From the sequence record PZ513997.1: 40,530 nucleotides of DNA; one strand, written 5' to 3'. The DNA comes from a phage. Position numbers and translations under genes: made by a program. The notes beneath the pieces were generated by a model, which searched no databases, was not told the origin of the DNA, and saw only the letters and a list, made by a program, of their open reading frames with translations. Below are positions 1 through 40,098 of the stretch, piece by piece (position 1 is the first letter of the stretch; each line of letters begins with the position of its first letter).

Positions 1-1443
1 ATGTCACTTGTAAGTCTAGTACGCGACACTACTCAAGATATCAAGCACAAGGCAGATATTCTTCTTGATTATCTGGACCGCCAGGAGCAAGGCTTAGGTC
101 AGGTTCAGGAGTTTGTAGAATCCTCCACTATTCTGAATATCCCTTCTTTGCGTAGCTTACTACCTTCCTCCGAGGGTCAGGTGGTGCAAGTACTAAGTAG
201 TTACAGCACCGCCGCTACACAACTCCATTTAGGTGGTGGGCAGTTCCAAGCTGTTAATAACCTGCAAGCAGAGCCAGACGATGGCGGTATTGTAGTGCAC
301 AGTACGCATCCTACGCTGGTATGGAAACGCATTAACTTCACTGCTTATGATATGCAGTTCTGGGGTGTAGTAGCTGATGCAAGTACTGATAACGCAGCAG
401 CCATTACCCGCGCTACTCAGTACGCCCGGCGTAACCGAATTGTACTGGAAGCCCCCGCAGGCAGTATTCATACCAGTGAAATGGTCCCCCTGTACGATAA
501 CATGGGTATACGTGGGCATGGTCGCGCCGAGAATACAGTATTCTACAAGACCACTAACAACGGGTTCAACTACACCAAGAACGGGGTAACTGTCCTTACT
601 GTAGATGCGTTGGCTGGGTTTGTGCCTAAAGAGTGGGACCTCGCTGATTACGAGATAAAGAGTTTCTGTGTGCATGCACAGCTTATTGGCTGTATGTTCC
701 GCAGACTTGGCCTCAGTGCTGAGAACGTAGCCACAACTCGCCCACAGTACGGCCTGCATATCGGCAAGGCAGCTACAGCGGTCGTGCGTCAGTGTACATT
801 CGAAGGTGGTTACATTGGCATTAAGGGCTATAACGTATTCAGTAGCGTCTTCGAGAGTGTAGCAGCGGTGCAGTTCAATGGCTATGGCTATGCTGGTGTA
901 AGTATCAGCGACTACCGTAACAGCACTTTATACAACTCAGGTACATCACTGGACATGCGTATCGTGCAGGTACGTGGATACCAGTTCGGCTTTGAACTGG
1001 ACCGCCTGCAGTACAGTACCCTTATCGATTGTACAGCAGAAGAAATCGTCCCTATGGCTGGGGAAACCACAAGCTACGCCTTCAGTATGTACGACCCGTT
1101 CTGTATCACAATGCTGAACTGTGCTACCGAGTTCGTTAAGGGTGGACAGATTCGTGTACTAGGTTTCGCTAACCCTAGCTTCCGACCGCAGCTTAAAGTT
1201 ACCGGATTCATTGCTATAGACCAGCAGAACCCGGCTGCGCTTACTCCCATCTACCTTGTCGACAACGGGGGTACTACAGGTATGAACGTTGTTATAGAGG
1301 CATCTGAACTATCCAGAAACACTGCTCTGAGCAATAACGGGCAGCCGAGTGTACAAGGTGCAGGAGCTAAGGTAATCCTGATTGGATGCTCTGGAGAGGA
1401 CTGGGTAGCTTCTGGTAGTGGGGTATTCACTAGACTCGCTTAA
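1..1443 (+). CDS. tail spike-like receptor-binding protein, possible beta-helix polysaccharide depolymerase
   Basis: 480 aa ORF. C-terminal two thirds are rich in short G/N/V/I/S/T beta-strand-like segments (e.g. 'GYIGIKGYNVFSSVFESVAAVQFNGYGYAGVSISDY'), typical of parallel beta-helix tail spikes. Sits beside lysis and fibre genes. No T7 gp17-type N-terminal anchor domain. Assignment is by composition and context only. Confidence 0.4.
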   Translation: MSLVSLVRDTTQDIKHKADILLDYLDRQEQGLGQVQEFVESSTILNIPSLRSLLPSSEGQVVQVLSSYSTAATQLHLGGGQFQAVNNLQAEPDDGGIVVHSTHPTLVWKRINFTAYDMQFWGVVADASTDNAAAITRATQYARRNRIVLEAPAGSIHTSEMVPLYDNMGIRGHGRAENTVFYKTTNNGFNYTKNGVTVLTVDALAGFVPKEWDLADYEIKSFCVHAQLIGCMFRRLGLSAENVATTRPQYGLHIGKAATAVVRQCTFEGGYIGIKGYNVFSSVFESVAAVQFNGYGYAGVSISDYRNSTLYNSGTSLDMRIVQVRGYQFGFELDRLQYSTLIDCTAEEIVPMAGETTSYAFSMYDPFCITMLNCATEFVKGGQIRVLGFANPSFRPQLKVTGFIAIDQQNPAALTPIYLVDNGGTTGMNVVIEASELSRNTALSNNGQPSVQGAGAKVILIGCSGEDWVASGSGVFTRLA

Positions 1444-1983
1444 ATGCTATCGAATAAAATCAAGGCAGCGCTGGCAGGGTCTTCCCTGCTGGGCGCGAGC
1501 CTATTCGCAGTAATTGAAAGCAACGAAGGCTTATCCCTCACTGCTTACAAAGATTCCGCAGGCGTACCTACCATCTGCTATGGCGAGACTAAAGGCGTTA
1601 AAATGGGCCAAAAGGCTACGCTGTCGCAGTGTCAGGCCATGCTGATACAGTCAGCAGGGGAACACGCTAAGGCTCTTGACGGGCTTCCTATGCATCTTAC
1701 GGACGTACAGCTTCTGGGAGCCATAGACCTAACCTATAACATTGGGGTATCAGGTTTCAAGAACAGCACCGTGAAGCGCAAGCTAATGCAAGGGGATAAT
1801 AAAGGTGCTGCTCAGGCCGTACTAGCGTGGCGCTACATCACTGTTAAGGGTAAGAAGTACGATTGCTCAGTTAAGGCCAACAAGGTCTGCTACGGCCTCT
1901 GGAAGCGCCGTGTTTGGGAATCCCAAGCTATTGGCAATGAATTTAAATCAATGCAGGCAGCAGTAGCTGCTATGCCTAAATAA
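1444..1983 (+). CDS. SAR endolysin, T4-lysozyme-like muramidase (GH24)
   Basis: 179 aa. 'ESNEGLSLTAYKDSAGVPTICYGET' matches the T4 lysozyme catalytic region '[21 protein letters not shown]' with the same Glu-Asp-Thr spacing. The N-terminal Gly/Ala-rich weakly hydrophobic segment 'KIKAALAGSSLLGASLFAVI' directly precedes the catalytic Glu, as in signal-arrest-release endolysins (P1 Lyz, phiKMV gp45). Confidence 0.8.
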   Translation: MLSNKIKAALAGSSLLGASLFAVIESNEGLSLTAYKDSAGVPTICYGETKGVKMGQKATLSQCQAMLIQSAGEHAKALDGLPMHLTDVQLLGAIDLTYNIGVSGFKNSTVKRKLMQGDNKGAAQAVLAWRYITVKGKKYDCSVKANKVCYGLWKRRVWESQAIGNEFKSMQAAVAAMPK

Positions 1984-3084
1984 ATGAGTCTAATTAATCA
2001 GCGCCGTCGTATCTCTAAGGGTGGCAATACCGGCGGTGGTGGCGGTACTGGGCCACAAGGACCTGTAGGGGAGCAAGGCCCTGTAGGGCCTATGGGTCCG
2101 GCAGGTGCAGATGGCCCAGTAGGTCCAGTAGGTCCAGTCGGTCCACAAGGTCCTCAAGGCCCAGCTGGGCCTCAGGGTCCGCAAGGTCTGCAAGGTCCTG
2201 AAGGTGTTCAAGGAGCTAAGGGAGATAAGGGCGATACTGGTCCAGCGGGGCCAGCGGGTCTCAACTTCCGTGCTGCTTGGGTTCCGGGCTTGACCTATGC
2301 TTTACAGGATTCAGTAGCCTACAATGGTAGTACTTGGTTTGCTAATTCGGCTATTGAGGCAGACGTAACGCCCGGTACTGATCCTCGTTGGGTGCTGCTT
2401 GCTATGCAGGGTACTAAGGGGGATACCGGACCTACAGGTCCACAGGGGCCTCGCGGAGTGCAAGGCGTGCCCGGAGACGTAGGCCCTCAGGGTCCGCAGG
2501 GTATAGCAGGCCCGCAGGGTATTCGCGGTCCTCAAGGTGATACCGGCGAGCAAGGTCCCGCAGGGCCACAGGGCGCTAGAGGTATACAGGGAGTTAAAGG
2601 CGATAAAGGCGACAAGGGTGATAAAGGGGATACAGGCGCTACTGGACCCCAAGGACCCGCAGGTCAAAATAATACCAATAATCCAGTATATACTACACAA
2701 CTTGCAGTATCTACTAGCTATTCGGCAATAGCTATTCCTAATAACCCCGGAGTATCCTTAACGGTTAGACGTGTCAGCAATAATATTGAGTATTCATTTA
2801 CTGGTAACTCCATTGCGGGTAGGTACTTCGACGTAGAATTAGTTAACTTCCCCTCAGCGGACGTAGTCAAAAGGTATCAATCTAACCATACAATAGCAGG
2901 TACTAGCCGCTATGTAGTAGGCGACCCCGCAGGCTACACTGGTACAGGATACAAGAAGATTCAAATTACTGCAAGGGATTGGGGAGATAAGAATATTATT
3001 ATCATAGACCTGTTCCACCTACAACGAGCTGGGGATGCTAACTTCAACATCGCCATTAGGATTGAGACCTTTAAACTTCCTTAA
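1984..3084 (+). CDS. collagen-like (Gly-X-Y) repeat protein, probable tail fibre or fibre-associated protein
   Basis: 366 aa. Two long uninterrupted G-X-Y tracts ('[46 protein letters not shown]...' and '[52 protein letters not shown]...') followed by a non-repetitive C-terminal domain. Confidence 0.65.
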
Positions 3085-3684
3085 ATGGCGGTAGTAAGAA
3101 AGCAGCGTAGAGTTGACGGTAAGAAGCAGAACTACTATTGGGATACTGAATTATGTATTGAGGTAGCAGCTCCTGTAAGGAAAAAGCACTATAGCATAGC
3201 TAATCCTATGCAAGGCTTGATAGGTTACGCTGTGATGCACGATAGCGAGCTTAAACAAGGTATAACAGACGCGTTTGCTAACTTTAACGGTAGTCAGATG
3301 CGTAACGGTTTAACTGGTATCAGTATACCTAAGTTGATTGAGTTAGCAGATACACAACCAGAGCTATATAGTACTGAGCATCCAGAGAGTACTAACCATG
3401 CTGCGTATGATGCAGCGCTTACTATGCTTCTAGTATTAGTGCGTGAACGTATCCCTGAATGGGAAGAGGCGTACAGATATGATATGCATAATAGTGGGTT
3501 AAATATCGTTGATTTAATGTGTGAACAAGGCTATGACACTGATAACTATACCGGTGCTATAGCTAATAGTCTTAATCAGGTTTGGAGTGAAGGTAAGCTC
3601 TTAGTAGGCACTGAGGCTAACAAGCATTGGCTTAAATCTCAGGGATTTTCTAAACTGCGTTCCCAGCGTAATAGATACATTTGA
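3085..3684 (+). CDS. hypothetical protein (weak resemblance to DnaQ-like 3'-5' exonuclease motifs)
   Basis: 199 aa ORF. 'YYWDTEL' resembles an Exo I D-x-E motif and 'NHAAYDAALTML' resembles an H-x-A-x-x-D motif, but spacing is atypical. Weak. Confidence 0.3.
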   Translation: MAVVRKQRRVDGKKQNYYWDTELCIEVAAPVRKKHYSIANPMQGLIGYAVMHDSELKQGITDAFANFNGSQMRNGLTGISIPKLIELADTQPELYSTEHPESTNHAAYDAALTMLLVLVRERIPEWEEAYRYDMHNSGLNIVDLMCEQGYDTDNYTGAIANSLNQVWSEGKLLVGTEANKHWLKSQGFSKLRSQRNRYI

Positions 3685-3861
3685 ATGGATAAAGCTAATT
3701 GGCAAGGTTATAAAACTCATGCAGATATGTTTGAGTTTCACAATAGAATTAACAACTACGCTTATCAGAGACTTAAAGCAGAGCAGGAGCTAGCAGAGCT
3801 TAGGCTACTAGCTTATAAGGAAGGGAAGGTATTCAACAATGAAGATTGGAAGAGATTTTAA
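3685..3861 (+). CDS. hypothetical small protein (58 aa)
   Basis: ATG-initiated ORF in the tiled frame, immediately after the preceding stop. No recognisable motif. Confidence 0.25.
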   Translation: MDKANWQGYKTHADMFEFHNRINNYAYQRLKAEQELAELRLLAYKEGKVFNNEDWKRF

Positions 3862-3864
3862 TTG

Positions 3865-3893
3865 TTGACTTACCTGTTTTGTAGAGGTATAGT
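3865..3893 (+). promoter_or_regulatory. sigma70-type host promoter candidate (early promoter)
   Basis: TTGACT (3865-3870), 17-nt spacer, TATAGT (3888-3893): a near-consensus -35/-10 pair with optimal spacing. Lies at the head of a non-coding-looking island, upstream of the small early ORFs. Confidence 0.45.
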
Positions 3894-4032
3894 TACATCA
3901 CACCACAACGAGGTAGGAAATAAAGAAGATGAACATTCAGAGCATGAACTTCCCGGTAATTATTAATTGTCTCTTAGCTTCTCATGTAATTCCCTCTGTA
4001 TAACCCGAGGACGCTACGTTACGCTCAGAACC

Positions 4033-4140
4033 TATTTATCTACCCCGATTCTTCAGGAGGGCAGCGGCTTATCGTTCCCGCTAACTTGCTGGCTAGTGCT
4101 CTGCTCCGTGCCTGCGCTTACCGTTACTCGGTTACTATTG
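4033..4140 (+). repeat. copy A of a roughly 100-bp repeated non-coding element (paired with 12950-13050)
   Basis: Roughly 75-80% identity to 12950-13050 by eye, including the shared 11-mer 'tttatctaccc' and core 'cttcagRagggcaRcSgcttatcgt'. Contains a 5-bp stem (agcgg/ccgct, 4063-4082) that is replaced by aaccg/cggtt in copy B, i.e. compensatory changes. Confidence 0.45.
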
Positions 4141-4332
4141 AAGCCTTACCAACCTGTACACGCACAATCATATCTTCTAGGCTGGACATGCAAGCTGTAC
4201 CGCTTTCGTAAGTACCTTCTTCCTTGCTAGATGGGACGTATATTTGGCACTACCTTTCTAATCGCCGCTACTATCTTTAACATTACACTGCCGTTTCTTG
4301 CTATCTATGGCTTAATCATGCTGTTCGCTTAA

Positions 4333-4572
4333 ATGACTAACTTCAAAACTATGATTGCTGGTATCTTGGCAGCTGCTGCTGTTACCTTCTCTATTAAGGA
4401 TGCTCAGGCTGTTCCTAACAGCATTGAACTCTGCAACTGGGGCAAATGGGCGTACGCTCAGAACATCACGCTACAGCAGCTAGTAGACACGTTAAACAGC
4501 GTTGAAGCTATGCCGATTGATGATAGAATGCAGGTAGTAGAGTGCTTTGTAGAGGAGATGTCTAAATCATGA
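4333..4572 (+). CDS. small secreted or periplasmic early protein
   Basis: 79 aa. N-terminus 'MTNFKTMIAGILAAAAVTFSIKDAQA' has the n/h/c architecture of a Sec signal peptide with an AxA-like cleavage site. First substantial ORF after the promoter island. Confidence 0.45.
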   Translation: MTNFKTMIAGILAAAAVTFSIKDAQAVPNSIELCNWGKWAYAQNITLQQLVDTLNSVEAMPIDDRMQVVECFVEEMSKS

Positions 4573-4701
4573 ATGAACGAATGGTATGAAGAGGCAATGC
4601 CGTGGCTTATCTGGGCCTTAGGCTTCCTGATTGTATATATGATTGCTAGTTACGCTGACGACGCTAAGATTGATTCTAAAGAGGAAGATAAAGATGCTTG
4701 A
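4573..4701 (+). CDS. small membrane protein (42 aa)
   Basis: Single hydrophobic helix 'PWLIWALGFLIVYMIASYA' followed by an acidic/lysine-rich tail. Junction shows 'atgaatga', consistent with an ATGA start/stop overlap that was duplicated. Confidence 0.3.
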   Translation: MNEWYEEAMPWLIWALGFLIVYMIASYADDAKIDSKEEDKDA

Positions 4702-4959
4702 ATGCTTGATATTATTCCCAACAACAAAGCTGCTAATGACGATAGATTCCAAGAATGTGATTTCGAGGAGTATCGTCAGTACGAGGCATTGAGTGTAACG
4801 AAGGGAATGGCTAAGCGCGTATGGTTACATAGATATTATGTAGGTAAGTTCGCACGTGAGGAGCACGTGCGAGTTTACAATACGCAAGAGGCTGCTAAGG
4901 CTCAGCAAGCGGTGCTAGGCGGTACTGTTACTGCCCTGCTTGAAACTGGCTTAATCTAA
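4702..4959 (+). CDS. hypothetical early protein
   Basis: 85 aa ORF in the early cluster. No motif recognised. Confidence 0.35.
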   Translation: MLDIIPNNKAANDDRFQECDFEEYRQYEALSVTKGMAKRVWLHRYYVGKFAREEHVRVYNTQEAAKAQQAVLGGTVTALLETGLI

Positions 4960-5715
4960 ATGTTTGATTTAACTACTACGAACACAGAACAGACCATGTC
5001 TAGTCTGGACTTCTTGAATAACATTATTAATCCGGCGCGTGTAGCAGCAGGGGAGAGGGAGGTTAGAAATAGGGATTTTATCAAACGCGTAGAAGACGAG
5101 TTGGACGATTTAACGGCGGGCGAAACTTTCGTTCGCTTCGGTAATACAGTAACTTATTACAATCTAACCTTAGAGCAGATGACTCTAATAGGTATGCGTG
5201 AATCTAAAGCTGTGCGTCGCTCAGTGTTAGAAACTCTGAAGAAGCTGCAACGTAAGGAGACTGACGAAGAGATTATGATGCGCGGATATATGCTGACTGT
5301 TAAGAAGTACGAGCAGTTGCAGCAAACGCTTATCATGAAGGACGCGGTCATTGAAGTACAAGAAGAGCAAATTCATAATCTACAGAACCTGTTTAATGAA
5401 GGTATGACTCCTTCGGCATTCGTTAAGCAACTGAATGGCTGTAATGCTAATGCTGTGTCGTCCTATCTAGAGCAGCTAGGTTGGATTTATTCTCGTGAAC
5501 GTAAAGGAGGTAAGGATTGGTTTGCTTATGCAAGCTCACGTGATAAATATCTGCGTCAATCAAGTTACTGCCCTAACCCTGCTTATCCTAACGTGCGTAT
5601 TCATACGGTACAGTTAACTAAGCAAGGCGCTGTTAAGCTCTATGAGATGTACTTAGACAGTAAACTTCCTATGCGTAAAGTATGGGATGGTAAATTCACC
5701 CACGACGTACTGTAA
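4960..5715 (+). CDS. putative antirepressor-like / DNA-binding early protein (KilA-C-like C-terminus)
   Basis: 251 aa. C-terminal segment 'FVKQLNGCNANAVSSYLEQLGWIYSRERKGGKDWFAYASSRDKYL' resembles KilA-C/antirepressor C-terminal domains. Weak, by eye. Confidence 0.3.
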   Translation: MFDLTTTNTEQTMSSLDFLNNIINPARVAAGEREVRNRDFIKRVEDELDDLTAGETFVRFGNTVTYYNLTLEQMTLIGMRESKAVRRSVLETLKKLQRKETDEEIMMRGYMLTVKKYEQLQQTLIMKDAVIEVQEEQIHNLQNLFNEGMTPSAFVKQLNGCNANAVSSYLEQLGWIYSRERKGGKDWFAYASSRDKYLRQSSYCPNPAYPNVRIHTVQLTKQGAVKLYEMYLDSKLPMRKVWDGKFTHDVL

Positions 5716-5883
5716 ATGCACAATATTTCTAACCCTGAAGAAATGAAGGATCTGGCACGTCACCTTCTCGAAGCGCTGGATTATAGTACGGCTACTTCTG
5801 ATGATGGTATGGTATGGTTAGAGAACTTTGAAGTAGGTATCTTGAGGGACTACATTGAGTATTTAGAAAATAAATTAAAATAA

Positions 5884-6210
5884 ATGAACGCTAAGGCTCA
5901 AGCACGTCGTTTCGGTATTTCTGTAGAAGCAGCTAAAGAGATGGAACGTAACCGTACTGAACTGGTGCAGCTTGCTCAGAAGCCGGAAGGTACTGAAGCA
6001 CGTAAGGCGCTTAAGAAGTTAATGACTCATACTTACAAAGCACAGTCCATTCCCAGCAATGACTTCTCTGATAAAGTATCTCAGCGCGGCAGTAAAGTAG
6101 CGGAGTATAAAGAACGCGGCGAACGCACTTGCCGTCCTAGCAGTAAGACGGATATTAAAGTTAATAGTTACTTTGCATCTAAATCACGTACTCCTAAGGG
6201 GATTAAATAA
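5884..6210 (+). CDS. hypothetical basic early protein
   Basis: 108 aa, Lys/Arg-rich. No motif recognised. Confidence 0.35.
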   Translation: MNAKAQARRFGISVEAAKEMERNRTELVQLAQKPEGTEARKALKKLMTHTYKAQSIPSNDFSDKVSQRGSKVAEYKERGERTCRPSSKTDIKVNSYFASKSRTPKGIK

Positions 6211-6314
6211 ATGGACCTTAATACGGCTTGGCAGATGGTAATGTGGCCTGTATGCGTCGTAATAGCAATCATCCTGATAATCGCGACTGAAGTAGAGAAG
6301 AGGAACAAGAAATG

Positions 6315-6487
6315 AATGATTCAAGAGGATGATTTTGATACTTGGTATAACATTCACGTAAGGCACCGTGCTCGTGAGGAAGCTACTAGGAGGAAACTAG
6401 CAGCGCTTAATCGCGGGCACTCTGAGAAGTATGCTAAGAAGTTAGCTTCTGAAACTTACAACGAATACCTGACGAGGAACTTAAAAT
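6315..6487 (+). CDS. small early protein, paralogue 1
   Basis: 57 aa. C-terminal 'HSEKYAKKLASETYNEYLTRN' is clearly paralogous to 'HSEAHAKKLAQGIYSEYLKRY' in the adjacent ORF 6488-6649. Confidence 0.35.
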
Positions 6488-6649
6488 GAATGACTGAACG
6501 TGAGATGTGGTATGAAGAATATGTTAAAAAACTTGCCGCCCAAGCTGCCACTGCTGCTTATCTGGTAGAACTTAAGAAACACTCTGAAGCTCACGCTAAG
6601 AAATTAGCGCAGGGTATTTACAGCGAATACTTGAAGAGGTATACAGAAT
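6488..6649 (+). CDS. small early protein, paralogue 2
   Basis: 53 aa. Tandem paralogue of 6315-6487 (see that entry). Confidence 0.35.
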
Positions 6650-6957
6650 GAATGACACAGCACCAGAAAGCACAGCAACTAGCTAAGAACTACTACACCT
6701 TCCTGATTAACAATGAATGTAACACCTGTTTCGCTTGGAATGCAGCTATGGCCCTTTTCAAACTGGAGATGCAGAAATGAATGACTGACCTTAACCCTGA
6801 ACTGATTGTAATGCGTAATGATGAAGTAACTGTACAGAACCTAGCTCGCGAGTACGATGCGCGGACTGAGCTGCATGAATACTACAAAGCTAAGGCTGAC
6901 CGTGTAGGTCTAACATTAGAAGCTTATTGCAAACGCTTTGGCGTTAAACTTCACTAA

Positions 6958-7287
6958 ATGTTGCCAGTAAACGAAGTAGTCGGGCAGTACTGGCGTATGC
7001 TTGAGACTCAAAGCAGCTTAGGCCGTAAGACATTGCAAGATATACCGATAGAGCTGCGCAGGCTCTGCCCTTTGAAATGGTGTACTGATTGGCAGTATCG
7101 TGAAGGTATGCGCCTGCTGGTAGGTTATTACAGCTATGATAACGAGAGAGCTTCAGAAGTCCTTCAGCGCATAGATTTTAATGTAATAAGGGAGTTGCAG
7201 GAGAAAGGGTATGAAGGTGCTAAGCAAGCGTTTAAGGATGCTTGCTTAGACTATTATGAATGGCAAGTATCGTACAGAGGTATCTAA
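6958..7287 (+). CDS. hypothetical protein
   Basis: 109 aa ORF directly upstream of primase. No motif recognised. Confidence 0.4.
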   Translation: MLPVNEVVGQYWRMLETQSSLGRKTLQDIPIELRRLCPLKWCTDWQYREGMRLLVGYYSYDNERASEVLQRIDFNVIRELQEKGYEGAKQAFKDACLDYYEWQVSYRGI

Positions 7288-8061
7288 ATGGCTGATGAAC
7301 TCTGGCTCAGGACGGCAAAGCGCTTGGCTGTTGGACAAACTGAACGCTTTAGGTGCTGCGGAAGAACAGCAGCAGCCGTAATAAGAAACGAGACTGATAA
7401 ATGGTCCTGCTCCTGCTATCGTTGCAAGAGCTATCACGTAGAACGTAAGCAGTATGCGCAATTAGCAGCACCTGAAGTACTGGGGCGCGAGTTACCCGCC
7501 CCTCAGGACCTGAAGCGCCTGCCTGAACTGGATGCAGGGCTTCAGCAGTTCCTTTACGGATTCTTAATATCAAAAGGTATCTGGCCTGACATGGCTGGAG
7601 ATGTTTATTACTCAGAACAATACAAGAGGTTAGTATGGAAATTATCAACGGTCAGTTACATAGCGCGAGCATTGCACGAGTATCAGCAACCGAAATGGGT
7701 CGTAATGGGGAAGCCGATGCAGTATGCAGCCGCGACGAATACGACGGGTTCATTGATAGTATTGACGGAGGATTACCTTTCGGCTTTCAAAGTTCAGCAA
7801 GTCACGGAGAGGTATTCATCTCTACAAGTTACGGCGGTAGCGTTGCTTGGGACAAGATTACCGCTGACTCTGAAGGCTGGGCTTATTAAGTTAGGTAAGC
7901 CTGTAGTGTGTATGCTTGACGATGATAAAGCTGGCTGGGATGGTACAGTCAGTGTAATAAAACAGCTTAAACCTTTCCTGCCAGTCTATGATAGGCATTT
8001 AGATGTAGACCCTAAAGCCGCTCATTGCGGTAAGATACTTGGAGCATTTGATGGACTTTAA
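7288..8061 (+). CDS. DNA primase (zinc-binding domain plus TOPRIM)
   Basis: 257 aa. Cys cluster 'CCGRTAAAVIRNETDKWSCSCYRC' (zinc ribbon). TOPRIM-like 'LTEDYLSAF' (conserved Glu) and 'CMLDDDKAGWDG' (DxD). Directly upstream of the helicase, as in phiKMV-like phages. Confidence 0.7.
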   Translation: MADELWLRTAKRLAVGQTERFRCCGRTAAAVIRNETDKWSCSCYRCKSYHVERKQYAQLAAPEVLGRELPAPQDLKRLPELDAGLQQFLYGFLISKGIWPDMAGDVYYSEQYKRLVWKLSTVSYIARALHEYQQPKWVVMGKPMQYAAATNTTGSLIVLTEDYLSAFKVQQVTERYSSLQVTAVALLGTRLPLTLKAGLIKLGKPVVCMLDDDKAGWDGTVSVIKQLKPFLPVYDRHLDVDPKAAHCGKILGAFDGL

Positions 8062-9915: not shown

Positions 9916-11130
9916 ATGAGCAGCATACTGATTTGGGATATTGAAACGCAGAACGTACCTTACTATGGCGGGGTTGCTACACCTTACTGCCCAGATAACT
10001 ACATTGTGGAATCAGGCTTCAGGATTGATAGAACTAATCCAGATGGTACGGTGACGTGCAGTGATGTAGGTAGCGTGCGTTACGAGTCGCGGGAGGAGTT
10101 CATCTCAGCACCTAGTAGTCAGTGGTTGCCTATTCAGGACGATACTTGGTTAATGGTAATGCATAACGCCGCATATGAGATTAGCTGGGCGTTGACGTTT
10201 GCTAGGGAAGAGTTTGAAGCATTCCTGAAACGGGGAGGGCGCGTATTCGATACAATGCAAGGCGAGTACATTGCCTCAGACTTCCAAAACCTTTACCCAT
10301 CATTAGATGAGACGGCTCCTAAGTACGGCGGCAGCCACAAGGTTGACGGCGTTAAACTGCTATGGCAGCAGGGCGTGTTAACAGCAGATATTGACCCTGT
10401 ACTGCTGCATGAGTATCTAACAGGGCCAGAAGGTGATATCGTAAACACAGCGTTATGCTTCTACGGGCAGTGTGCAGTGTTCGCTGAGCGTGGGCAGATG
10501 CCTATGGTCTGGGAAAGGATGGATAGTGTACTGGCCTTAGCCTACTGCGAGTTCAACGGTGTGTACGTAGACATGCCTACAGCCAGAGCTAACCAGAAGG
10601 AGCAGGAGGACGCTATAGCAGAGCTGAAGCAGACGCTGCAAGGCTTCTTACCTGAACTGCCTGAGGGATTTGAGTTCAACTGGAACAGCGGTTATCATAT
10701 GAGTGCGTTGGTGTACGGCGGTACGGTTAAGTACAAGTGCAAGGTCCCGTATGACCCGCCAAAGTTTGTAAAGTTCGATGCCTACCTGGCCGATGTTAAG
10801 GGTACTCAGCAATACATAGATGTTAATGATTGGCAAGATAGCTGGACGTACAGCCGTGAAGTGTTTAAGTCTGGACGTAATAAAGGTCTGCCCAAAGTTT
10901 ACAAGGTGGAAAGTTCAGAGCAGTCTATGAAGTGGGGTGAGCGCCTGTATAAGTTCGAAGGGCTTGTGCACATCCAAGACCTACCAGCAGTATTGCAAGA
11001 GAAGTACGCAGAGCGCGGAGAGTTCCGAGGTGCTCAGACATTGGCAGATGGTACACCTGTGTTCAGTACAGGGACTGATGCTATGAAAGAACTGGCTAAC
11101 TATTTTATTGGGATGGAAGAGAATGAGTAA
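9916..11130 (+). CDS. DNA polymerase, N-terminal part (3'-5' exonuclease domain)
   Basis: 404 aa. Exo I motif 'ILIWDIETQN'. Followed in frame by the polymerase-domain ORF. Confidence 0.8.
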   Translation: MSSILIWDIETQNVPYYGGVATPYCPDNYIVESGFRIDRTNPDGTVTCSDVGSVRYESREEFISAPSSQWLPIQDDTWLMVMHNAAYEISWALTFAREEFEAFLKRGGRVFDTMQGEYIASDFQNLYPSLDETAPKYGGSHKVDGVKLLWQQGVLTADIDPVLLHEYLTGPEGDIVNTALCFYGQCAVFAERGQMPMVWERMDSVLALAYCEFNGVYVDMPTARANQKEQEDAIAELKQTLQGFLPELPEGFEFNWNSGYHMSALVYGGTVKYKCKVPYDPPKFVKFDAYLADVKGTQQYIDVNDWQDSWTYSREVFKSGRNKGLPKVYKVESSEQSMKWGERLYKFEGLVHIQDLPAVLQEKYAERGEFRGAQTLADGTPVFSTGTDAMKELANYFIGMEENE

Positions 11131-12825: not shown

Positions 12826-12949
12826 ATGCTTGCTGACGCTACTGACCGTTTCCGGTTGGCTCCCTGCCTCGTCGATGTGTGTACTATACGGAAAGCATCC
12901 CTGCTTGTCAACAGCTATTTATAAGTGTACGGGAGGAACCGTTCAGTCT

Positions 12950-13050
12950 CGTTTTATCTACCCAGAGACTTCAGAAGGGCAACCGCTTATCGTCCTCGGT
13001 TAACGTCTTGCTATGTGGCACATCTTACTTACTTCGTTACTGCTTGTCAA
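12950..13050 (+). repeat. copy B of the roughly 100-bp repeated non-coding element (paired with 4033-4140)
   Basis: See copy A. Lies in the 366-bp non-coding-looking island 12826-13191 downstream of the HNH gene. Stem aaccg/cggtt at 12981-13001. Confidence 0.45.
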
Positions 13051-13191
13051 TCTCTTTCTTAAATGATTCTTACTTTCATCTACTACCTCCTATTAATAAA
13101 GTTAAGGCTGCAATCTCTGAAGACTGCATCACTAACCCTACTTAAGTTAGCGAGTCTTATTTCTCCTAGACTCTCATCTGCATCACACTGA

Positions 13192-13380
13192 ATGAAAGTA
13201 AGAATCATCAATCACGATGCTTATGGTCCTTTCTTAACTGATACATGTAAGGAACTGTACGCAGTAGGTACAGTGCATGAAGTACAAGATTTCTTCCCTG
13301 ACACGGGGGAGGTTATCTTAGGGTATGAAGATGAAGGATTTACCTTTGATCCATCAGAGTATGAAGTTGTGGAGGAGTAG
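13192..13380 (+). CDS. small acidic hypothetical protein
   Basis: 62 aa, strongly acidic ('...FDPSEYEVVEE'). Immediately upstream of the pentapeptide-repeat gene. Confidence 0.35.
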   Translation: MKVRIINHDAYGPFLTDTCKELYAVGTVHEVQDFFPDTGEVILGYEDEGFTFDPSEYEVVEE

Positions 13381-13902
13381 ATGAACTATTTAGATATCTG
13401 CGAGAAGTACAATGTAGGAAGCCTGCGCGACGCTAACCTGCGCGACGCTGACCTGTACGGCGCTAACCTGTACGGCGCTGACCTGCGCGACGCTAACCTG
13501 TACGGCGCTAACCTGTGCGGCGCTGACCTGCGCGACGCTAACCTGTACGGCGCTAACCTGTGCGGCGCTGACCTGCGCGGCGCTAACCTGCGCGGCGCTA
13601 ACCTGCGCGGCGCTAACCTGTACGGCGCTAACCTGCGCGGCGCTAACCTGCGCCTAACCTGCGCGGCGCTAACCTGTACGGCGCTAACCTGCGCGGCGCT
13701 AACCTGCGCGGCGCTAACCTGTGCGGCGCTAACCTGTGCGGCGCTAACCTGCGCGGCGCTAACCTGCGCGGCGCTAACCTGTACGGCGCTAACCTGCGCG
13801 ACGCTAACCTGCGCGACGCTGACCTGTGCGGCGCTGACCTGCGCGACGCTGACCTGTGCGGCGCTAACCTGCGCGGCGCTGACCTGCATGGGACTGACTT
13901 GA
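13381..13902 (+). CDS. pentapeptide-repeat protein (Qnr/MfpA-type fold), reading frame disrupted
   Basis: First 90 codons encode perfect A(N/D)LxG pentapeptides ('[30 protein letters not shown]...'). At 13651-13661 one 15-nt unit is 11 nt, shifting the called frame into 'LTCAALTC...'. The pentapeptide frame continues to a TAG at 13935-13937 ('...[19 protein letters not shown]'). Confidence 0.6.
13426..13886 (+). repeat. 15-bp tandem repeat array (about 31 units, one truncated to 11 bp)
   Basis: Units of form 'cgcgRcgctRacctg', head to tail with no spacers. This is the coding repeat of the pentapeptide-repeat gene. Truncated unit at 13651-13661. Confidence 0.85.
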
Positions 13903-19035: not shown

Positions 19036-21486
19036 ATGAAACACGAATCATTAGAACAGAAAGTAGAACGTCAGGTACAGCTAGAGAAGGATTACCGTAC
19101 ACGTAGCCTGAATAAGTCACGTGAGCTTGTACAGAAAGCTATGCAAGCTGGTAATCTTTCAAGCCTGCCTAAGGTATCTCGTATGATTGCAGCTGCTTAC
19201 GACACCGTAGCAGCAGGCATTGACGAGATGAAGGCAGAGAAAACAGCAGGCGTAGGCGGCAAGTACCGCAGCGTTATACGTCTGGTTCCTACGGATGTAC
19301 TGACCGTGATGACTTTAACTAAGTGTTTCGATGCCCTCTTTGTATCTGAAGGCGGCAGCTCTCGCGTGAGTGCTGGTACTCTGCTGGCTAATATTGGTCG
19401 TCAGGTACAGGCAGAAGTCCTAAGCATTCAGCTTGAGACTGTAGCACCTGCATACATGAACCGAGTGTTCGAGTACTTGAAAGAACGTAATACTACCAGC
19501 CCTTCCCACATCATGAAGACACTGCGCGCTTCAGCTGAGAATGTGCACTTAGGGCATGAGCCGTGGAGCAACTCTCAATGTGTAGCGGTAGGTAAGCTCC
19601 TGCTTCAACCAGCTTGGGAGACGGGCCTGTTCCAGTGGGATAAGGCTACCGATGCCACCCGCATGTCCTACCTTGCACCTGCACCTGAATTAGCCGAGCA
19701 CTTGCAAGAACTGGTAGAAGATGCAGATACAGTAGATATCAAGCCGCCTATGCTGGTTAAGCCTAACCGCCACGATACACTGTTCTCCGGCGGTTACCTG
19801 CTCCCTTCTACCTGTAAGCGTGGTACTTATCACAACCGCCAGATTACTCGCAGCATGAAGCGCGATGTGTCTGACGCATTCAAGGAAGCGACTGAACTTA
19901 AGTCTGCTCTGAATAAGTCTCAAGAAGTTCCTTACGTAATTAACAAGCAGATTCTTAACCTGATTAATGAGGCGCGTCGTACTGGAGTAACTGCCGGTAT
20001 GCCCAGCGCTTTCCCTGCTCCTAAACCTGAATGGTATCTGGACGGTGTACCTAAAGAAGAGTACACAGAGCGTCAGATGGATGACTTCCAAACTTGGAAG
20101 ATGAACATGCGCAACTGGTACATCAATGAGCGTGCAAGGGTAAGTAAGCTGCGTTCCTTGATTTCACTGGTTCAGATTTGCGAAGAGTTTAAAGATGAAG
20201 AAGAGCTGTACTTCCCAACCTGCGTTGACTGGCGCTACCGTCTGTACTTCAAATCAAGCCTGCATCCTCAAGGTTCTGACATGCAAAAAGCTCTGCTGTC
20301 CTTCGGTCGGGCAAAGCCTCTGGGAGAGCGGGGTCTGTTTTGGCTCAAGGTACACGTCGCTACCTGCTATGGTTATGATAAGGCCTTATTCGAAAAGCGT
20401 GCAGCTTGGACTGATGCTAATATCGAGCAGATTCGACTTGTCGCATCAAGTCCGTTTAATGCAGAGGCTTTTAAAAGTGCCGACAGTCCGTGGTGTTTTC
20501 TGGCTGCCTGCATCGACCTCGTTGCTGCTCTTGACTCTGAAAGCCCAGAGCTTTACGAATCGCGGCTTCCGGTGGCTATGGATGCAACCAACTCTGGCAG
20601 CCAGCACTTCTCAGCTCTACTGCGTGACCCAGTAGGCGGTAAACTTACTAACCTGTTCTGGGAAGGTAACGAAGAGAAAGCGGATATGTACATGGACGTT
20701 AAGCAGCGTACTGATGCTAAGGTCATCATGGACTTGGACAATCCTGAGTTCGTAGTACAGGCTCAGTTCTGGCGTGAGAACGAGATTACTCGTAGCATGA
20801 CCAAGCGCCCTTGCATGACACACGTATACTCTGCAACTGTTCGCTCGTGCTCTGAGTACATCCTCCAGTCTGCGCAGGAGGAAGGCTACGAAGGCACTGA
20901 GGAGTACAGCCTGTTCAAGCTGGCAGGTTACCTGAGTGGACGTATGAAGGCGGCGGTAGAGGACGCTAACCCAGCGGCTACAGCAGCAATGAAGTACCTG
21001 CAATCCCTGTGCTATAAAGTTCCGGCAGCCAATCACCTGCAATGGAAGACTCCGCTAGGTGGTCTGGTTATTAATCGTTACACTGAGTCTGAAGAGACTA
21101 CAGTCAAGGTTAAGAGCATGAACTTATCGCACCTGCTTATCTATAACCGTAACTACGATGTAAACAACAAGCGTAAGGCTAAGTCAGGTATCTCCCCTAA
21201 CTGGATTCACAGCTTAGATGCCACGCACTTGATGATGACTATTAATGCGTTCGAAGGTGATATCATGCCTATTCACGATTCAGTAGCTACACATGCTTGT
21301 GATGTAGATGTAATGCAGAAGGCAGTACGCGAGCAGTTCGTGCGCCTGTACACTGAGCACGATGTACTGCAAGAGATTACTGACGCAGCCGTAGAATGCG
21401 GCGCTGACTTGGAAGGTTTAGAAATGCCTGTTAAAGGTAATCTTAATATCCAATTAGTGAAGGAATCCCCGTTCTTCTTCTGCTGA
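19036..21486 (+). CDS. T7-like single-subunit DNA-directed RNA polymerase
   Basis: 816 aa. 'DATNSGSQHFSALLRD' vs T7 'DGSCSGIQHFSAMLRD'; 'RSMTKRPCMTHVYSA' vs T7 'RSVTKRSVMTLAYGS'; 'PIHDSVATH' vs T7 'IHDSFGT'. Its position after the replication genes is the phiKMV-like arrangement. Confidence 0.95.
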   Translation: MKHESLEQKVERQVQLEKDYRTRSLNKSRELVQKAMQAGNLSSLPKVSRMIAAAYDTVAAGIDEMKAEKTAGVGGKYRSVIRLVPTDVLTVMTLTKCFDALFVSEGGSSRVSAGTLLANIGRQVQAEVLSIQLETVAPAYMNRVFEYLKERNTTSPSHIMKTLRASAENVHLGHEPWSNSQCVAVGKLLLQPAWETGLFQWDKATDATRMSYLAPAPELAEHLQELVEDADTVDIKPPMLVKPNRHDTLFSGGYLLPSTCKRGTYHNRQITRSMKRDVSDAFKEATELKSALNKSQEVPYVINKQILNLINEARRTGVTAGMPSAFPAPKPEWYLDGVPKEEYTERQMDDFQTWKMNMRNWYINERARVSKLRSLISLVQICEEFKDEEELYFPTCVDWRYRLYFKSSLHPQGSDMQKALLSFGRAKPLGERGLFWLKVHVATCYGYDKALFEKRAAWTDANIEQIRLVASSPFNAEAFKSADSPWCFLAACIDLVAALDSESPELYESRLPVAMDATNSGSQHFSALLRDPVGGKLTNLFWEGNEEKADMYMDVKQRTDAKVIMDLDNPEFVVQAQFWRENEITRSMTKRPCMTHVYSATVRSCSEYILQSAQEEGYEGTEEYSLFKLAGYLSGRMKAAVEDANPAATAAMKYLQSLCYKVPAANHLQWKTPLGGLVINRYTESEETTVKVKSMNLSHLLIYNRNYDVNNKRKAKSGISPNWIHSLDATHLMMTINAFEGDIMPIHDSVATHACDVDVMQKAVREQFVRLYTEHDVLQEITDAAVECGADLEGLEMPVKGNLNIQLVKESPFFFC

Positions 21487-37803: not shown

Positions 37804-39516
37804 ATGATGGCTGTCACTCTAAAGGACTTCCGAGAGTTCGCATACTTAGGTATGAAGTTCCTCGGCTTTGACCTTACGGAGATGCAGCGCGATATAGCTG
37901 ACTTCATGCAGCACGGTCCGCGTAAGCGCATGGTGGCCGCACAGCGTGGCGAGGCTAAGTCTACACTCGCAGCTCTCTATGCAGTCTGGCGCCTGATTCA
38001 GGACCAGAGCACGCGTATTCTTATTGTATCCGGTGGTGAGAAGCAGGCATCTGAAGTAGCTACGCTTGTTATCCGTATGATTGAAACGTGGCCTTTACTG
38101 TGCTACCTCAAGGCTGATAGTACTCGCGGTGACCGTACCTCTTATGAGGGTTACGATGTTCACTGCGACCTGAAGCCTTTGGATAAATCTGCCAGCATCG
38201 CGTGCGTAGGTATTACCGCACAGCTTCAGGGTAAGCGTGCTGACCTGCTAATCCCAGATGATATTGAGACTACTAAGAACGGCTTAACGCAGACTATGCG
38301 TGAGCAGTTGCTTAGCATCTCTAAAGACTTTGCAGCAATCTGTACGCACGGTGATACCTTGTATCTTGGCACGCCTCAGACTAAGGACAGTATCTACAAG
38401 ACGCTTACGGGTCGTGGCTTCGAGGTTCGTGTATGGCCCGGTCGTATCCCTAATCAGGAGATGCGCGAGCGTTACGGAGAAACCCTAGCCCCGTATATTC
38501 AAACCCTCATCGACGCAGGGTACAAAGAGACAGGCTTCGGGTTAGATGGTACGTTAGGTGAATGCACCGATAAAGGACGCTATAACGAGGAAGCCTTGAT
38601 TGAGAAGGAACTGGACTTCGGCCCAGAAGGGTTCCAATTACAGTATATGCTCGACACAACCATGTCCGATGCACTGCGTACCAAGATTAAACTCAGTGAC
38701 GCTTTGATTTACACTGGCTCGCATGATGCAGCGCCTGACCGACTGAACTACATGGCTGATAAGCGCTATCTCTACGGAGAGGAACATGAGGGTATTCGAG
38801 GTCAGCAGTTGTATGTGCCGAGTCACGTAGGTGAGCACATGCTCAACTATAAGCACAAGCTGCTGGTACTTGACCCTGCTGGTAACGGTGGTGATGAAGT
38901 ATCCTTTGCAGCTGGTGGTGCAGTCAGCTCTTACATCCATCTCTTTAGTGTAGGTGGTTTGCAAGGCGGGCTTAGCACAGAGAACGTAGATACCTTAATT
39001 GACCTAGCGGTCGAGATGGGTATTACTGATATCTTCGTCGAGCGTAACATGGGTCACGGCACGGTAGAATCTTTGATTATAAACCGTCTACGTGAACGTA
39101 GTATGCCCGGCATTGGTGTCAGGGGCGGTTATAACACGTCTCAGAAAGAGAAACGTATCATTGATACTATCTCCCCTGTTACGCGTCGTCACCGCTTTGT
39201 AGTGCACGCTAGGGCGCTGGAAGACGATATCAAGTACTGTATGCAGTACAGTCGTGATAAGCGCTGGCTTTACAGTGCGTTCCAGCAGTTATCCGGTATT
39301 ACTTATGACCGTGGTAGCCTGGCGAAGGATGACCGGGCAGACGCTATTAGTATGCTCGTAGCTGAACTGAACTCGCACCTCGTAGAGGATGAGAAGCAGG
39401 CAGCAGAGAAGGACCAGCTTAAGAAGGCGTTAGACTTTATGGATAACCCTATGGGCTGGAAGAAGTCAATGGTACAGAAGCGCAAGCGCGGTGCAAGCGC
39501 ACGTATCGGTTATTAA
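37804..39516 (+). CDS. terminase large subunit, T7 gp19-like
   Basis: 570 aa (T7 gp19 is 586 aa). Walker A-like 'AAQRGEAKSTLAAL'. Last large gene of the structural block. Confidence 0.8.
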   Translation: MMAVTLKDFREFAYLGMKFLGFDLTEMQRDIADFMQHGPRKRMVAAQRGEAKSTLAALYAVWRLIQDQSTRILIVSGGEKQASEVATLVIRMIETWPLLCYLKADSTRGDRTSYEGYDVHCDLKPLDKSASIACVGITAQLQGKRADLLIPDDIETTKNGLTQTMREQLLSISKDFAAICTHGDTLYLGTPQTKDSIYKTLTGRGFEVRVWPGRIPNQEMRERYGETLAPYIQTLIDAGYKETGFGLDGTLGECTDKGRYNEEALIEKELDFGPEGFQLQYMLDTTMSDALRTKIKLSDALIYTGSHDAAPDRLNYMADKRYLYGEEHEGIRGQQLYVPSHVGEHMLNYKHKLLVLDPAGNGGDEVSFAAGGAVSSYIHLFSVGGLQGGLSTENVDTLIDLAVEMGITDIFVERNMGHGTVESLIINRLRERSMPGIGVRGGYNTSQKEKRIIDTISPVTRRHRFVVHARALEDDIKYCMQYSRDKRWLYSAFQQLSGITYDRGSLAKDDRADAISMLVAELNSHLVEDEKQAAEKDQLKKALDFMDNPMGWKKSMVQKRKRGASARIGY

Positions 39517-39699
39517 ATGGCAATTGCAGCAGCAACTTTGGCACAGAAGACTGAACTTCAACGTCAACTGAATATTCTGGCTAAGGACATTTACCAGATT
39601 CTTACCCAGCCTTTGGATGCAGTGTCAGTAGGCCCGACCTTTGATGCTAAGATTCCGGCACTAGAAGCAGCTATCGCAGCTGTTAAAGCAGCAGCATAA
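39517..39699 (+). CDS. hypothetical protein
   Basis: 60 aa, Ala-rich helical ORF. Confidence 0.3.
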   Translation: MAIAAATLAQKTELQRQLNILAKDIYQILTQPLDAVSVGPTFDAKIPALEAAIAAVKAAA

Positions 39700-40098
39700 A
39701 TGATTCGTGCAGCCGCTGGGTTAGTACTCGTTACGGCGCTTACAGGATGCTCAGCGGCTTCTGCACTATCAGGATTAGTCGGCACTAAGCCAGACCTGAC
39801 AGTGCAGGCTGGGGCTGAGAATACTAAGCAGACCGTAGGTTTGAACAGTAGATCCGACTCCAGCACGGATACAACAATCAAAGATTCCAATGTAGGTACT
39901 CTAGACACTTCTACAAAGAAGCAGTCAGTTACTACTGGAACTATCAATACAGAGCGTGTACAGGTTGTTAATAATGACAGTACAAGCATTATACTAGCAG
40001 GGTTGGCGGGTGCAGCGGTTCCAATCGCAATCCTCATCATTATCCTGCTTTTCCGCAAGCTCGGAAGGAAGGGTGACGTAGATGAGTCTACCAATTAG
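39700..40098 (+). CDS. outer-membrane lipoprotein with C-terminal transmembrane helix; candidate unimolecular spanin
   Basis: 132 aa. N-terminus 'MIRAAAGLVLVTALTGC' is a lipoprotein signal with lipobox L-T-G-C. Ser/Thr-rich middle region, then a hydrophobic helix 'LAGLAGAAVPIAILIIILLF' and basic tail 'RKLGRKGD'. Topology and size match phage T1 gp11-type u-spanins. Confidence 0.5.
   Translation: MIRAAAGLVLVTALTGCSAASALSGLVGTKPDLTVQAGAENTKQTVGLNSRSDSSTDTTIKDSNVGTLDTSTKKQSVTTGTINTERVQVVNNDSTSIILAGLAGAAVPIAILIIILLFRKLGRKGDVDESTN

Follow-up and report, generated by a model that had tools for sequence, protein, structure and literature searches.

A probable early gene cluster in Escherichia phage vB_EcoP_PAS7 combines a conserved backbone with replaceable cargo in two leader-headed operons

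The stretch of DNA analysed here (hereafter the window; 40,530 nt, record PZ513997.1) is DNA of Escherichia phage vB_EcoP_PAS7 (OQ921331.1; 42,514 bp), a virulent coliphage of the Autographiviridae, Slopekvirinae, genus Cepavirus, whose isolation host was the Shiga-toxin-producing E. coli (STEC) O103; the two sequences show 0 mismatches and differ only by gaps at junctions. Our subject is a cluster of 12 small open reading frames (ORFs) at window positions 4333–7287, immediately upstream of the DNA primase gene. All 12 were recovered exactly at the coordinates listed below, on the plus strand, and all are annotated coding sequences (CDSs) in the GenBank entry of PAS7, where 11 are labelled hypothetical and the 251-amino-acid (aa) ORF is called a “putative DNA-binding protein”. 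The PAS7 publication is concerned with host range and tailspikes, leaving the early genes undiscussed. Some O103 isolates respond with clearing but form no plaques (PMC11522302). In the following list, backbone and cargo denote genes that are kept or replaced, respectively, among related phages, and SD stands for a Shine-Dalgarno motif.

3865..3893, plus strand: sigma70-type promoter TTGACT-17-TATAGT (PAS7 811–839; 10/12 consensus match), heading operon 1
3968..4093, minus strand: leader RNA copy A, present as reverse complement only (covariance-model match 117 bits)
4231..4332, plus strand: 33-aa hydrophobic ORF of operon 1, just upstream of the cluster (SD GAGG at -12; not annotated in GenBank PAS7)
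4333..4572, plus strand: 79-aa secreted protein (predicted), backbone (PHROG 19819, 6e-11)
4573..4701, plus strand: 42-aa single-pass membrane peptide (predicted) with acidic C-terminal tail, cargo
4702..4959, plus strand: 85-aa protein, cargo (PHROG 3955, 9e-16, and 5 other PHROGs)
4960..5715, plus strand: 251-aa Ant-type (antirepressor-like) protein, cargo (PHROG 63 “anti-repressor Ant”, E 5.3e-25)
5716..5883, plus strand: 55-aa acidic protein (isoelectric point, pI, 4.45), cargo
5883..5884, no strand: junction at which a native 210-nt intergenic region is lost
5884..6210, plus strand: 108-aa basic protein (pI 10.2), backbone (PHROG 9286, 3e-14)
6211..6315, plus strand: 34-aa hydrophobic ORF, unique to PAS7
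6316..6489, plus strand: 57-aa basic protein, paralogue 1, cargo
6490..6651, plus strand: 53-aa protein, paralogue 2, cargo
6652..6780, plus strand: 42-aa protein, backbone
6781..6957, plus strand: 58-aa DUF7267 protein, backbone (PF23929, 1e-15; PHROG 5136)
6958..7287, plus strand: 109-aa protein of a conserved family, backbone
7288..8061, plus strand: DNA primase, downstream edge of the cluster (PHROG 47, 1.5e-22; weak Toprim_2 match)

The window is not the native genome. It consists of 64 CDSs concatenated stop-to-start in frame 1, each in its coding orientation, with every frame-1 stop directly abutting the next start codon; on the plus strand, frames 1, 2 and 3 hold 64, 873 and 1,484 stop codons. 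Through this concatenation intergenic DNA is gone and overlapping bases are doubled. Because CDSs were joined head to tail, the ORF density of the window is partly an artefact. The native PAS7 layout (loci L001 and L014) served throughout as the reference for spacing, overlaps and regulatory DNA. The dense cluster of small ORFs before primase, proposed in an earlier note on this DNA, nevertheless stands: natively it spans PAS7 1385–4555, is ~92% coding and contains gaps of 15, 10, 210 and 10 nt. The ATGA-type overlaps on which that note based translational coupling are likewise real in the native genome, which has five such 4-nt overlaps, one of 8 nt and one of 1 nt. The window itself has none; instead, ATGA is duplicated across the junctions 4572/3, 6315/6, 6489/90, 6651/2 and 6780/1, and the 8-nt overlap appears at 4701/2 as ATGCTTGA followed directly by ATGCTTGA.

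CDS-concatenated windows conceal regulatory DNA and bring in miscalled antisense ORFs, and readings of this window that build on spacing, intergenic motifs or strand need to be re-checked against OQ921331.1. The window ORFs 3862–3966, 3967–4230, 12826–12924, 12925–13062 and 13063–13191 (TTG, GTG or ATG starts) cover a sigma70 promoter or lie antisense to leader RNAs or intergenic DNA, and are almost certainly gene-caller artefacts; 3967–4230 is also antisense to the GenBank CDS 875–1045 of PAS7. The first three CDSs of the window, encoding a tailspike (1–1443), an endolysin (1444–1983) and a collagen-like tail fibre (1984–3084), have native counterparts that follow each other in PAS7 at 38918–40018 (tail fibre), 40030–40569 (endolysin) and 40579–42021 (tailspike); their order is reversed in the window with each orientation kept, which is probably an artefact of window assembly.

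For comparison we used seven Cepavirus-like relatives from GenBank, IMG/VR and Logan/ENA contigs, plus four distant ones for a presence matrix. The ratio of nonsynonymous to synonymous substitution rates (dN/dS) against relatives was 0.03–0.25 for seven ORFs, indicating purifying selection and therefore real genes, namely the 79-aa (0.11–0.18), 55-aa (0.22), 108-aa (0.05–0.16), 57-aa (~0.25) and 42-aa (at 6652; 0.03–0.12) ORFs and the 58- and 109-aa ORFs (0.06–0.24). An SD-like motif lies 9–17 nt upstream of 10 of the 12 ORFs.

In its native form the cluster comprises two sigma70-driven, translationally coupled operons. Operon 1 contains the 33-, 79-, 42-, 85-, 251- and 55-aa ORFs, and operon 2 the 108-, 34-, 57-, 53-, 42-, 58- and 109-aa ORFs followed by primase; the 210-nt intergenic region between the 55- and 108-aa genes divides them. 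Upstream of each lie a strong sigma70-type promoter and a conserved, structured leader RNA of ~120 nt, which precedes the first gene. The promoter of operon 1 sits within a TTG-start ‘ORF’ (3862–3966) that is probably miscalled, while the lost intergenic region held the promoter of operon 2 (TTGACG-17-TATAGT, PAS7 2952–2980) together with leader copy B (2988–3113; covariance-model match 137 bits).

The leader belongs to a set of three related ~120-nt intergenic elements in PAS7 (1076–1201, 2988–3113 and 10383–10508). Copy B having been lost through CDS concatenation, the element survives in the window only in reverse complement, at 3968–4093 and 12887–13012 (both minus strand), within the miscalled ORFs 3967–4230 (minus strand, 87 aa, TTG start, called over copy A) and 12826–13193. 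It also occurs in the relatives L002, L005, L008, L009, L015 and L017, with a diverged copy in Koutsourovirus KKP 3828 and shorter variants in other relatives. In 10 of 13 copies from five genomes, a sigma70-type promoter matching 10–11 of 12 consensus positions ends 8–10 nt upstream, and the next SD-ATG follows 35–70 nt downstream of the RNA. RNAalifold yielded five helices with compensatory changes in 13 of 23 pairs. Across 18 distinct leader sequences, 97% of cells were paired vs 35–41% in slid controls, and double changes were found in 17 pairs, values reached by 0 of 500 shuffles in an alignment that was fitted to the model and is thus biased in its favour. Single copies fold no better than shuffles (z 0.1–1.2). 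No Rfam 15 family matched at E<=1 over PAS7 1–5600, which includes copies A and B, and pattern scans of bacterial genomes and JGI metagenomes gave chance matches only (covariance-model scores <=16 bits). An explanation of the intergenic repeats as RNase III sites was rejected, as single copies fold like shuffles and the covarying structure is a multi-helix junction rather than a long hairpin; CsrA sites, judged by eye, were dropped, the GGA loops not being conserved in copy A. The leader is a candidate for a new class of cis-regulatory RNA, which may act like the put RNAs of phage HK022 or as a translational leader.

A tblastn matrix of the seven close and four distant relatives showed the cluster to be a mosaic of a five-gene backbone and seven replaceable cargo ORFs. 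The backbone consists of the genes for the 79-aa (6/7 close relatives), 108-aa (7/7), 42-aa (at 6652; 7/7), 58-aa (11/11 relatives, i.e., 7/7 close and 4/4 distant) and 109-aa (11/11) proteins. Cargo are the 42-aa ORF at 4573 (1/7), the 85-aa (1/7), 251-aa (3/7), 55-aa (2/7) and 34-aa (0/7) ORFs and the two paralogues (2/7). The slots of the cargo are filled in relatives by a pentapeptide-repeat protein, KilA-N, Rha plus KilAC, a PHROG 11084 protein and small ORFans; replacement of this kind is what one would expect of genes for host interaction or anti-defence. Conservation of the genes for the 58-aa DUF7267 protein and the 109-aa protein extends over several Autographiviridae subfamilies: both are kept in Slopekvirinae as well as in Corkvirinae, and LIMElight- and VP93-like phages have the 109-aa fold too. 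This breadth fits a core phage function better than strain-specific counter-defence, for which the 109-aa gene is an unlikely candidate because it is conserved so widely and across hosts.

Two further genes deserve mention in their own right. A 168-aa early protein of relative L005 (2986–3492; IMGVR_UViG_3300001598_000508) belongs to PHROG 11084 (4e-72) and has an N-terminus, IGKGAFTKAY...VLLK, that resembles a kinase glycine loop plus lysine, with no Pfam match. A pentapeptide-repeat protein is encoded at window 13381–13902 (Pfam PF00805, 1.6e-28) by 31 copies of a 15-nt unit whose reading frame switches half-way (ANLRG..., then LTCAA...); GenBank annotates a ‘modular polyketide synthase’ on the opposite strand. 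This gene sits in the third promoter-plus-leader operon, whereas its counterpart in phage P64441 lies inside the early cluster, and its product is a candidate DNA mimic of the Qnr/MfpA type.

The earlier note had described the ORFs as free of recognisable enzymatic motifs, and we found no Pfam or NCBIfam match at curated level except DUF7267. Homology searches placed six ORFs in PHROG families, five of them without assigned function, whereas PDB sequence searches (79-, 85-, 251-, 55-, 108- and 58-aa ORFs) returned nothing at meaningful E-values; fold-level comparison covered the 109-aa ORF, again with no PDB relative. Homologues of Ocr, protein kinase or anti-restriction proteins, which the note had suspected here, did not emerge: none of the 12 ORFs matched such families, including Ocr/ArdA-type DNA mimics and the T7 0.7 kinase, in Pfam, NCBIfam or PHROGs. 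The PADLOC defence-system models, a library without anti-defence families, gave 0 matches at E<=0.01 for the 10 ORFs scanned (all except the 42-aa ORF at 4573 and the 34-aa ORF), and a literature search on KilAC in connection with anti-defence returned nothing relevant. These searches gave no positive evidence for an anti-defence role, which is plausible for the cargo only.

A block that lies between sigma70-type promoters and primase, is translationally coupled and encodes small non-enzymatic proteins is therefore best read as a phage early region, as the earlier note had proposed. Its comparison with T7-like phages is loose, because PAS7 is KP34/phiKMV-like and the phage RNA polymerase gene (window 19036–21486) lies ~12 kb downstream of the block. 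We assign a probability of roughly 0.7 to the view that the cluster is the early region of PAS7, transcribed by the host RNA polymerase, with a KP34-like layout, two leader-headed coupled operons, and a backbone plus cargo. The early timing is our inference. The products would then be binding proteins rather than enzymes. Conservation and position suggest that the backbone sets up the infection by acting on phage or host DNA or on the transcription or replication machinery; the secreted 79-aa protein may act on the envelope, and the cargo would mediate interactions that differ by strain, with the host, its resident prophages or competitor phages, counter-defence possibly among them. Several points weigh against this view. 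The proposed backbone roles derive from conservation and position only, and the backbone/cargo split itself from seven close and four distant relatives. The promoter calls are consensus matches only, with region-wide counts not above those of shuffled sequences. No obvious SD precedes the 251- and 109-aa ORFs, and the 34-aa ORF and the 42-aa ORF at 4573, which are conserved hardly or not at all, are possibly not genes.

Within operon 1, the 33-aa ORF has weak matches in relatives L008 and L009. The signal peptide proposed for the 79-aa ORF is confirmed as a Sec-type prediction: the protein begins with MTNFK, continues with a hydrophobic stretch (hydropathy maximum 1.47) and AQA, then VPNS, and would leave an acidic mature part of 53 aa. 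Among seven homologues the hydrophobic N-terminus varies, AxA is kept (AQA/AKA/AHA), and the mature start PNS[IV]ELCNWGKWA and two Cys are invariant. The suggestion of membrane peptides also agrees with our analysis, the 42-aa ORF at 4573 and the 34-aa ORF reaching 19-residue hydropathy maxima of 1.85 and 2.56, respectively; the former has an AGGAG SD, overlaps natively through ATGA and is 72% identical to its counterpart in L005. A word-indexed protein search with the 85-aa ORF gave 4 close matches only. Its C-terminal 45-aa domain occurs in 313 phage records from unrelated families (siphoviruses, rV5-like myoviruses, Campylobacter phages), and an AP2-like reading of that domain, made by eye, had no Pfam support. 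The 55-aa ORF matched no family in Pfam or PHROGs and nothing in the PDB sequence search.

The KilA-C-like protein of the earlier note is the 251-aa ORF, of which residues 6–249 align to positions 126–375 of the 431-position PHROG 63 profile; four further antirepressor PHROGs match as well. It combines an N-terminal module homologous to the centre of P1-type Ant1 (BLASTP, 37% identity over 98 aa, 1e-13), a coiled-coil-like middle and a KilAC-like helix-turn-helix (HTH) C-terminus. Over the N-terminal 100 residues, identity is 37–60% with the Ant1 centre and with temperate-phage proteins (Stx-converting, Vibrio and Pseudomonas phages). The C-terminal 130 residues find matches in ICP1 “DNA-binding” proteins and in a KilAC-annotated gene (for residues 121–248, by tblastn, ‘antirepressor protein KilAC’). 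The syntenic gene of phage P64441 carries the Pfam domains Phage_pRha and ANT (ANT 2.4e-13), and P1-type Ant1 has ANT at the equivalent position. Because the 251-aa ORF itself does not match Pfam ANT (KilAC, PF03374) at E<=1, showing only a weak GcrA-like HTH match (residues 134–184, E 0.0026), its KilAC family membership is supported only indirectly.

Turning to operon 2, the 108-aa family comprises 19 representatives, in two longer ones of which the domain sits C-terminal to a T5orf172/MUG113 nuclease-type domain; because of these fusions the 108-aa protein is probably a DNA-binding module. The 34-aa ORF has a weak SD and no homologue anywhere. In relatives, a conserved but unrelated 55-aa gene fills this slot from the same start site, and since the 34-aa ORF is moreover unique to PAS7, its status as a gene is uncertain. 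The tandem paralogue pair proposed earlier is genuine, the 57- and 53-aa proteins being 45% identical over 47 aa (E 5e-8). The 42-aa protein at 6652 is highly conserved in the genus-level clade, with 90–93% aa identity in five relatives; a CxxC/zinc motif was considered and dropped, as Cys26 is Arg or Gln in all five aligned relatives. The 58-aa protein scores 58.3 bits against DUF7267 (cut-off 27), with residues 3–57 on model positions 5–62 of 64, and its homologues in relatives carry the same match; a literature search on DUF7267 returned nothing relevant.

The 109-aa family is represented by 298 phage records (Klebsiella Drulisvirus, Pectobacterium, Enterobacter and Shigella Buco phages) and 300 protein clusters, and its members are always free-standing, 108–121 aa long and located at the early/replication boundary. 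With a shallow alignment (48 sequences, >=67% identity) AlphaFold2 gave an unusable model at a mean predicted local distance difference test score (pLDDT) of 51, whereas a diversified 64-sequence alignment led to a confident alpha/beta-hairpin model (pLDDT 92.6, predicted template modelling score 0.82) with two helices, a long beta-hairpin and three further helices. The invariant residues lie mostly in the hydrophobic core. Neither profile nor fold searches found a relative in PDB. A search of BFVD with the model returned six matches at E<=0.001, all unnamed or uncharacterised proteins, of which the five from named phages belong to phiKDA1, LIMElight, Vibrio phages VP93 and vB_VpP_HA5, and Proteus PM16 (template modelling scores 0.74–0.93). 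A literature search on Drulisvirus early proteins returned nothing relevant. In Buco (L010 3237–4961), PhiM1 (L011 3643–5376) and KpV41 (L012 3710–5677), a protein of 575–655 aa and a ‘peptidase’ follow the 109-aa homologue; both genes of these Bucovirus, Phimunavirus and Drulisvirus representatives are absent from PAS7, where primase comes directly after the 109-aa gene. Gene models of that primase disagree: the window has one 257-aa CDS (PAS7 4707–5480), which GenBank splits into 4555–4800 and 5010–5480.

Other explanations attribute the same genes to different tasks. The whole cluster could serve host shut-off and anti-defence, as a counterpart of the T7 class I genes (Ocr, 0.7 kinase, anti-restriction), as its position downstream of sigma70 promoters and its small, non-enzymatic, often acidic or basic proteins would suggest. 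The turnover of the cargo, with a pentapeptide-repeat (DNA-mimic-type) protein in the same slot of P64441, and the location of the window's gene of this type in the third operon with a leader point the same way. We regard this explanation as unlikely, however, since no homology to characterised anti-defence or shut-off proteins was found, the genome organisation is KP34-like rather than T7-like, and five of the genes show conservation, which for two extends over subfamilies that infect different hosts and is atypical of counter-defence. A narrower proposal concerns the 251-aa Ant-type protein, which might act on the repressors of prophages residing in the STEC host, either lambdoid ones (Stx prophages among them) or P1-like ones, and thereby de-repress them or neutralise prophage-encoded exclusion. 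Its N-terminal module shares 37–52% identity with P1-type Ant1 and with Stx-converting phage proteins (116 records), and the isolation host was STEC O103. However, Ant-profile positions up to ~125 are missing from the protein, it does not match Pfam ANT directly, its gene is missing from 4 of 7 close relatives, and such proteins are common in lytic phages without a known repressor target (ICP1 homologues), so that we rate this idea even lower than the T7-type arsenal. For safety, an Ant-type protein related to Stx-converting phage proteins poses a question worth testing, because it might induce prophages.

A stronger competitor, to which we still give less than an even chance, is that the backbone (especially the DUF7267 58-aa and 109-aa proteins next to primase, and the DNA-binding-like 108-aa protein) assists the phage's own replication or transcription programme with accessory factors, as housekeeping rather than host-directed functions. 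The presence of the 58- and 109-aa genes in 11/11 relatives, the 298 records of the 109-aa gene, the constant location of both genes at the early/replication boundary, the dN/dS of 0.06–0.24 and the fusion of the 108-aa domain to nuclease-type domains agree with it. Against it, no likeness to a known replication or transcription factor was seen by sequence or fold, three to four genes separate the 109-aa gene from primase in Drulisvirus, Bucovirus and PhiM1, and the invariant residues of the 109-aa protein are mostly core residues. A comparable, tentative standing is given to the possibility that the smallest ORFs, namely the 34-aa ORF (6211–6315) and perhaps the 42-aa ORF (4573–4701), are fill-ins of the gene caller. 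The same annotation made spurious calls over the promoter and antisense to the leader RNAs (3862–4230 and 12826–13193), and the 34-aa ORF, without homologue and with a weak SD, starts just where relatives have a conserved 55-aa gene in its place. Both ORFs are, however, annotated in GenBank PAS7 and have a clean single transmembrane segment, and the 42-aa ORF has its AGGAG SD, its ATGA overlap and the L005 counterpart.

Going beyond the favoured reading of a host-transcribed early region made of backbone and cargo, one may speculate that the structured 5′ leader, which is undescribed, governs early and middle operons of Cepavirus-like phages. It could reprogram the host RNA polymerase in a put-like manner or control translation, allowing ~17 kb of read-through to the phage RNA polymerase gene, while the DUF7267 and 109-aa pair would constitute a new host-takeover module of KP34-like podophages. 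The five covarying helices and the three copies per genome, each typically starting at +1 of a strong sigma70 promoter, motivate this proposal, which we consider improbable as it stands.

Taken together, the cluster is real but ordinary and belongs to a published phage; less ordinary are the leader RNA, which is undescribed, and the 109-aa family, for which no related structure has been solved. Against STEC, PAS7 is a biocontrol candidate, and the split directs experimenters to the backbone for essential takeover functions and to the cargo for strain-specific counter-defence. The 109-aa family, found in podophages of Klebsiella, Pectobacterium, Enterobacter and Vibrio by the hundreds, has a confident model and no solved relative and is therefore a tractable target for structural and functional work.

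Among known systems, the closest positional parallel to the leader is provided by the put RNAs of HK022, cis-acting antitermination RNAs downstream of PL and PR, both early promoters (PMC9378689). Both occur as several sequence-related, structured copies per genome that head long host-transcribed units (PMC9378689); the PAS7-type leader sits a short way downstream of an early sigma70 promoter (in one copy the distance is ~240 nt), and no protein partner is required a priori. The likeness is positional only, in placement relative to promoters and multi-copy arrangement. The put RNAs, which render the transcribing RNA polymerase resistant to terminators by way of its beta' zinc-binding domain, are ~70 nt long with two stem-loops, the PAS7 leader ~120 nt with five helices. 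The 58-aa ORF matches nearly the whole DUF7267 model (PF23929) above its curated cut-off, a family that itself has no assigned function. With the antirepressors of the P1 Ant1 and P22 Ant type (PF03374, PF09669) the 251-aa protein shares the match to the Ant profile and to the Ant1 centre and a C-terminus like that of KilAC-annotated proteins. It differs from them in lacking the N-terminal ~125 profile positions, in matching neither Pfam ANT nor Rha directly, and in being carried by a virulent phage without a repressor of its own. As a whole, the cluster resembles the early ORFan blocks known from phiKMV- and KP34-like Autographiviridae and, in T7-like phages, the class I region: it is leftmost, relies on sigma70 promoters and host RNA polymerase for transcription, precedes the replication genes, and consists of many small, packed, often overlapping genes, mostly without known function, whose content varies between relatives. 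Unlike T7 class I, it has no detected homologue of 0.3 (Ocr), 0.4, 0.7, 1.2 or others, the RNA polymerase gene lies outside the block, and part of the block is conserved across subfamilies.

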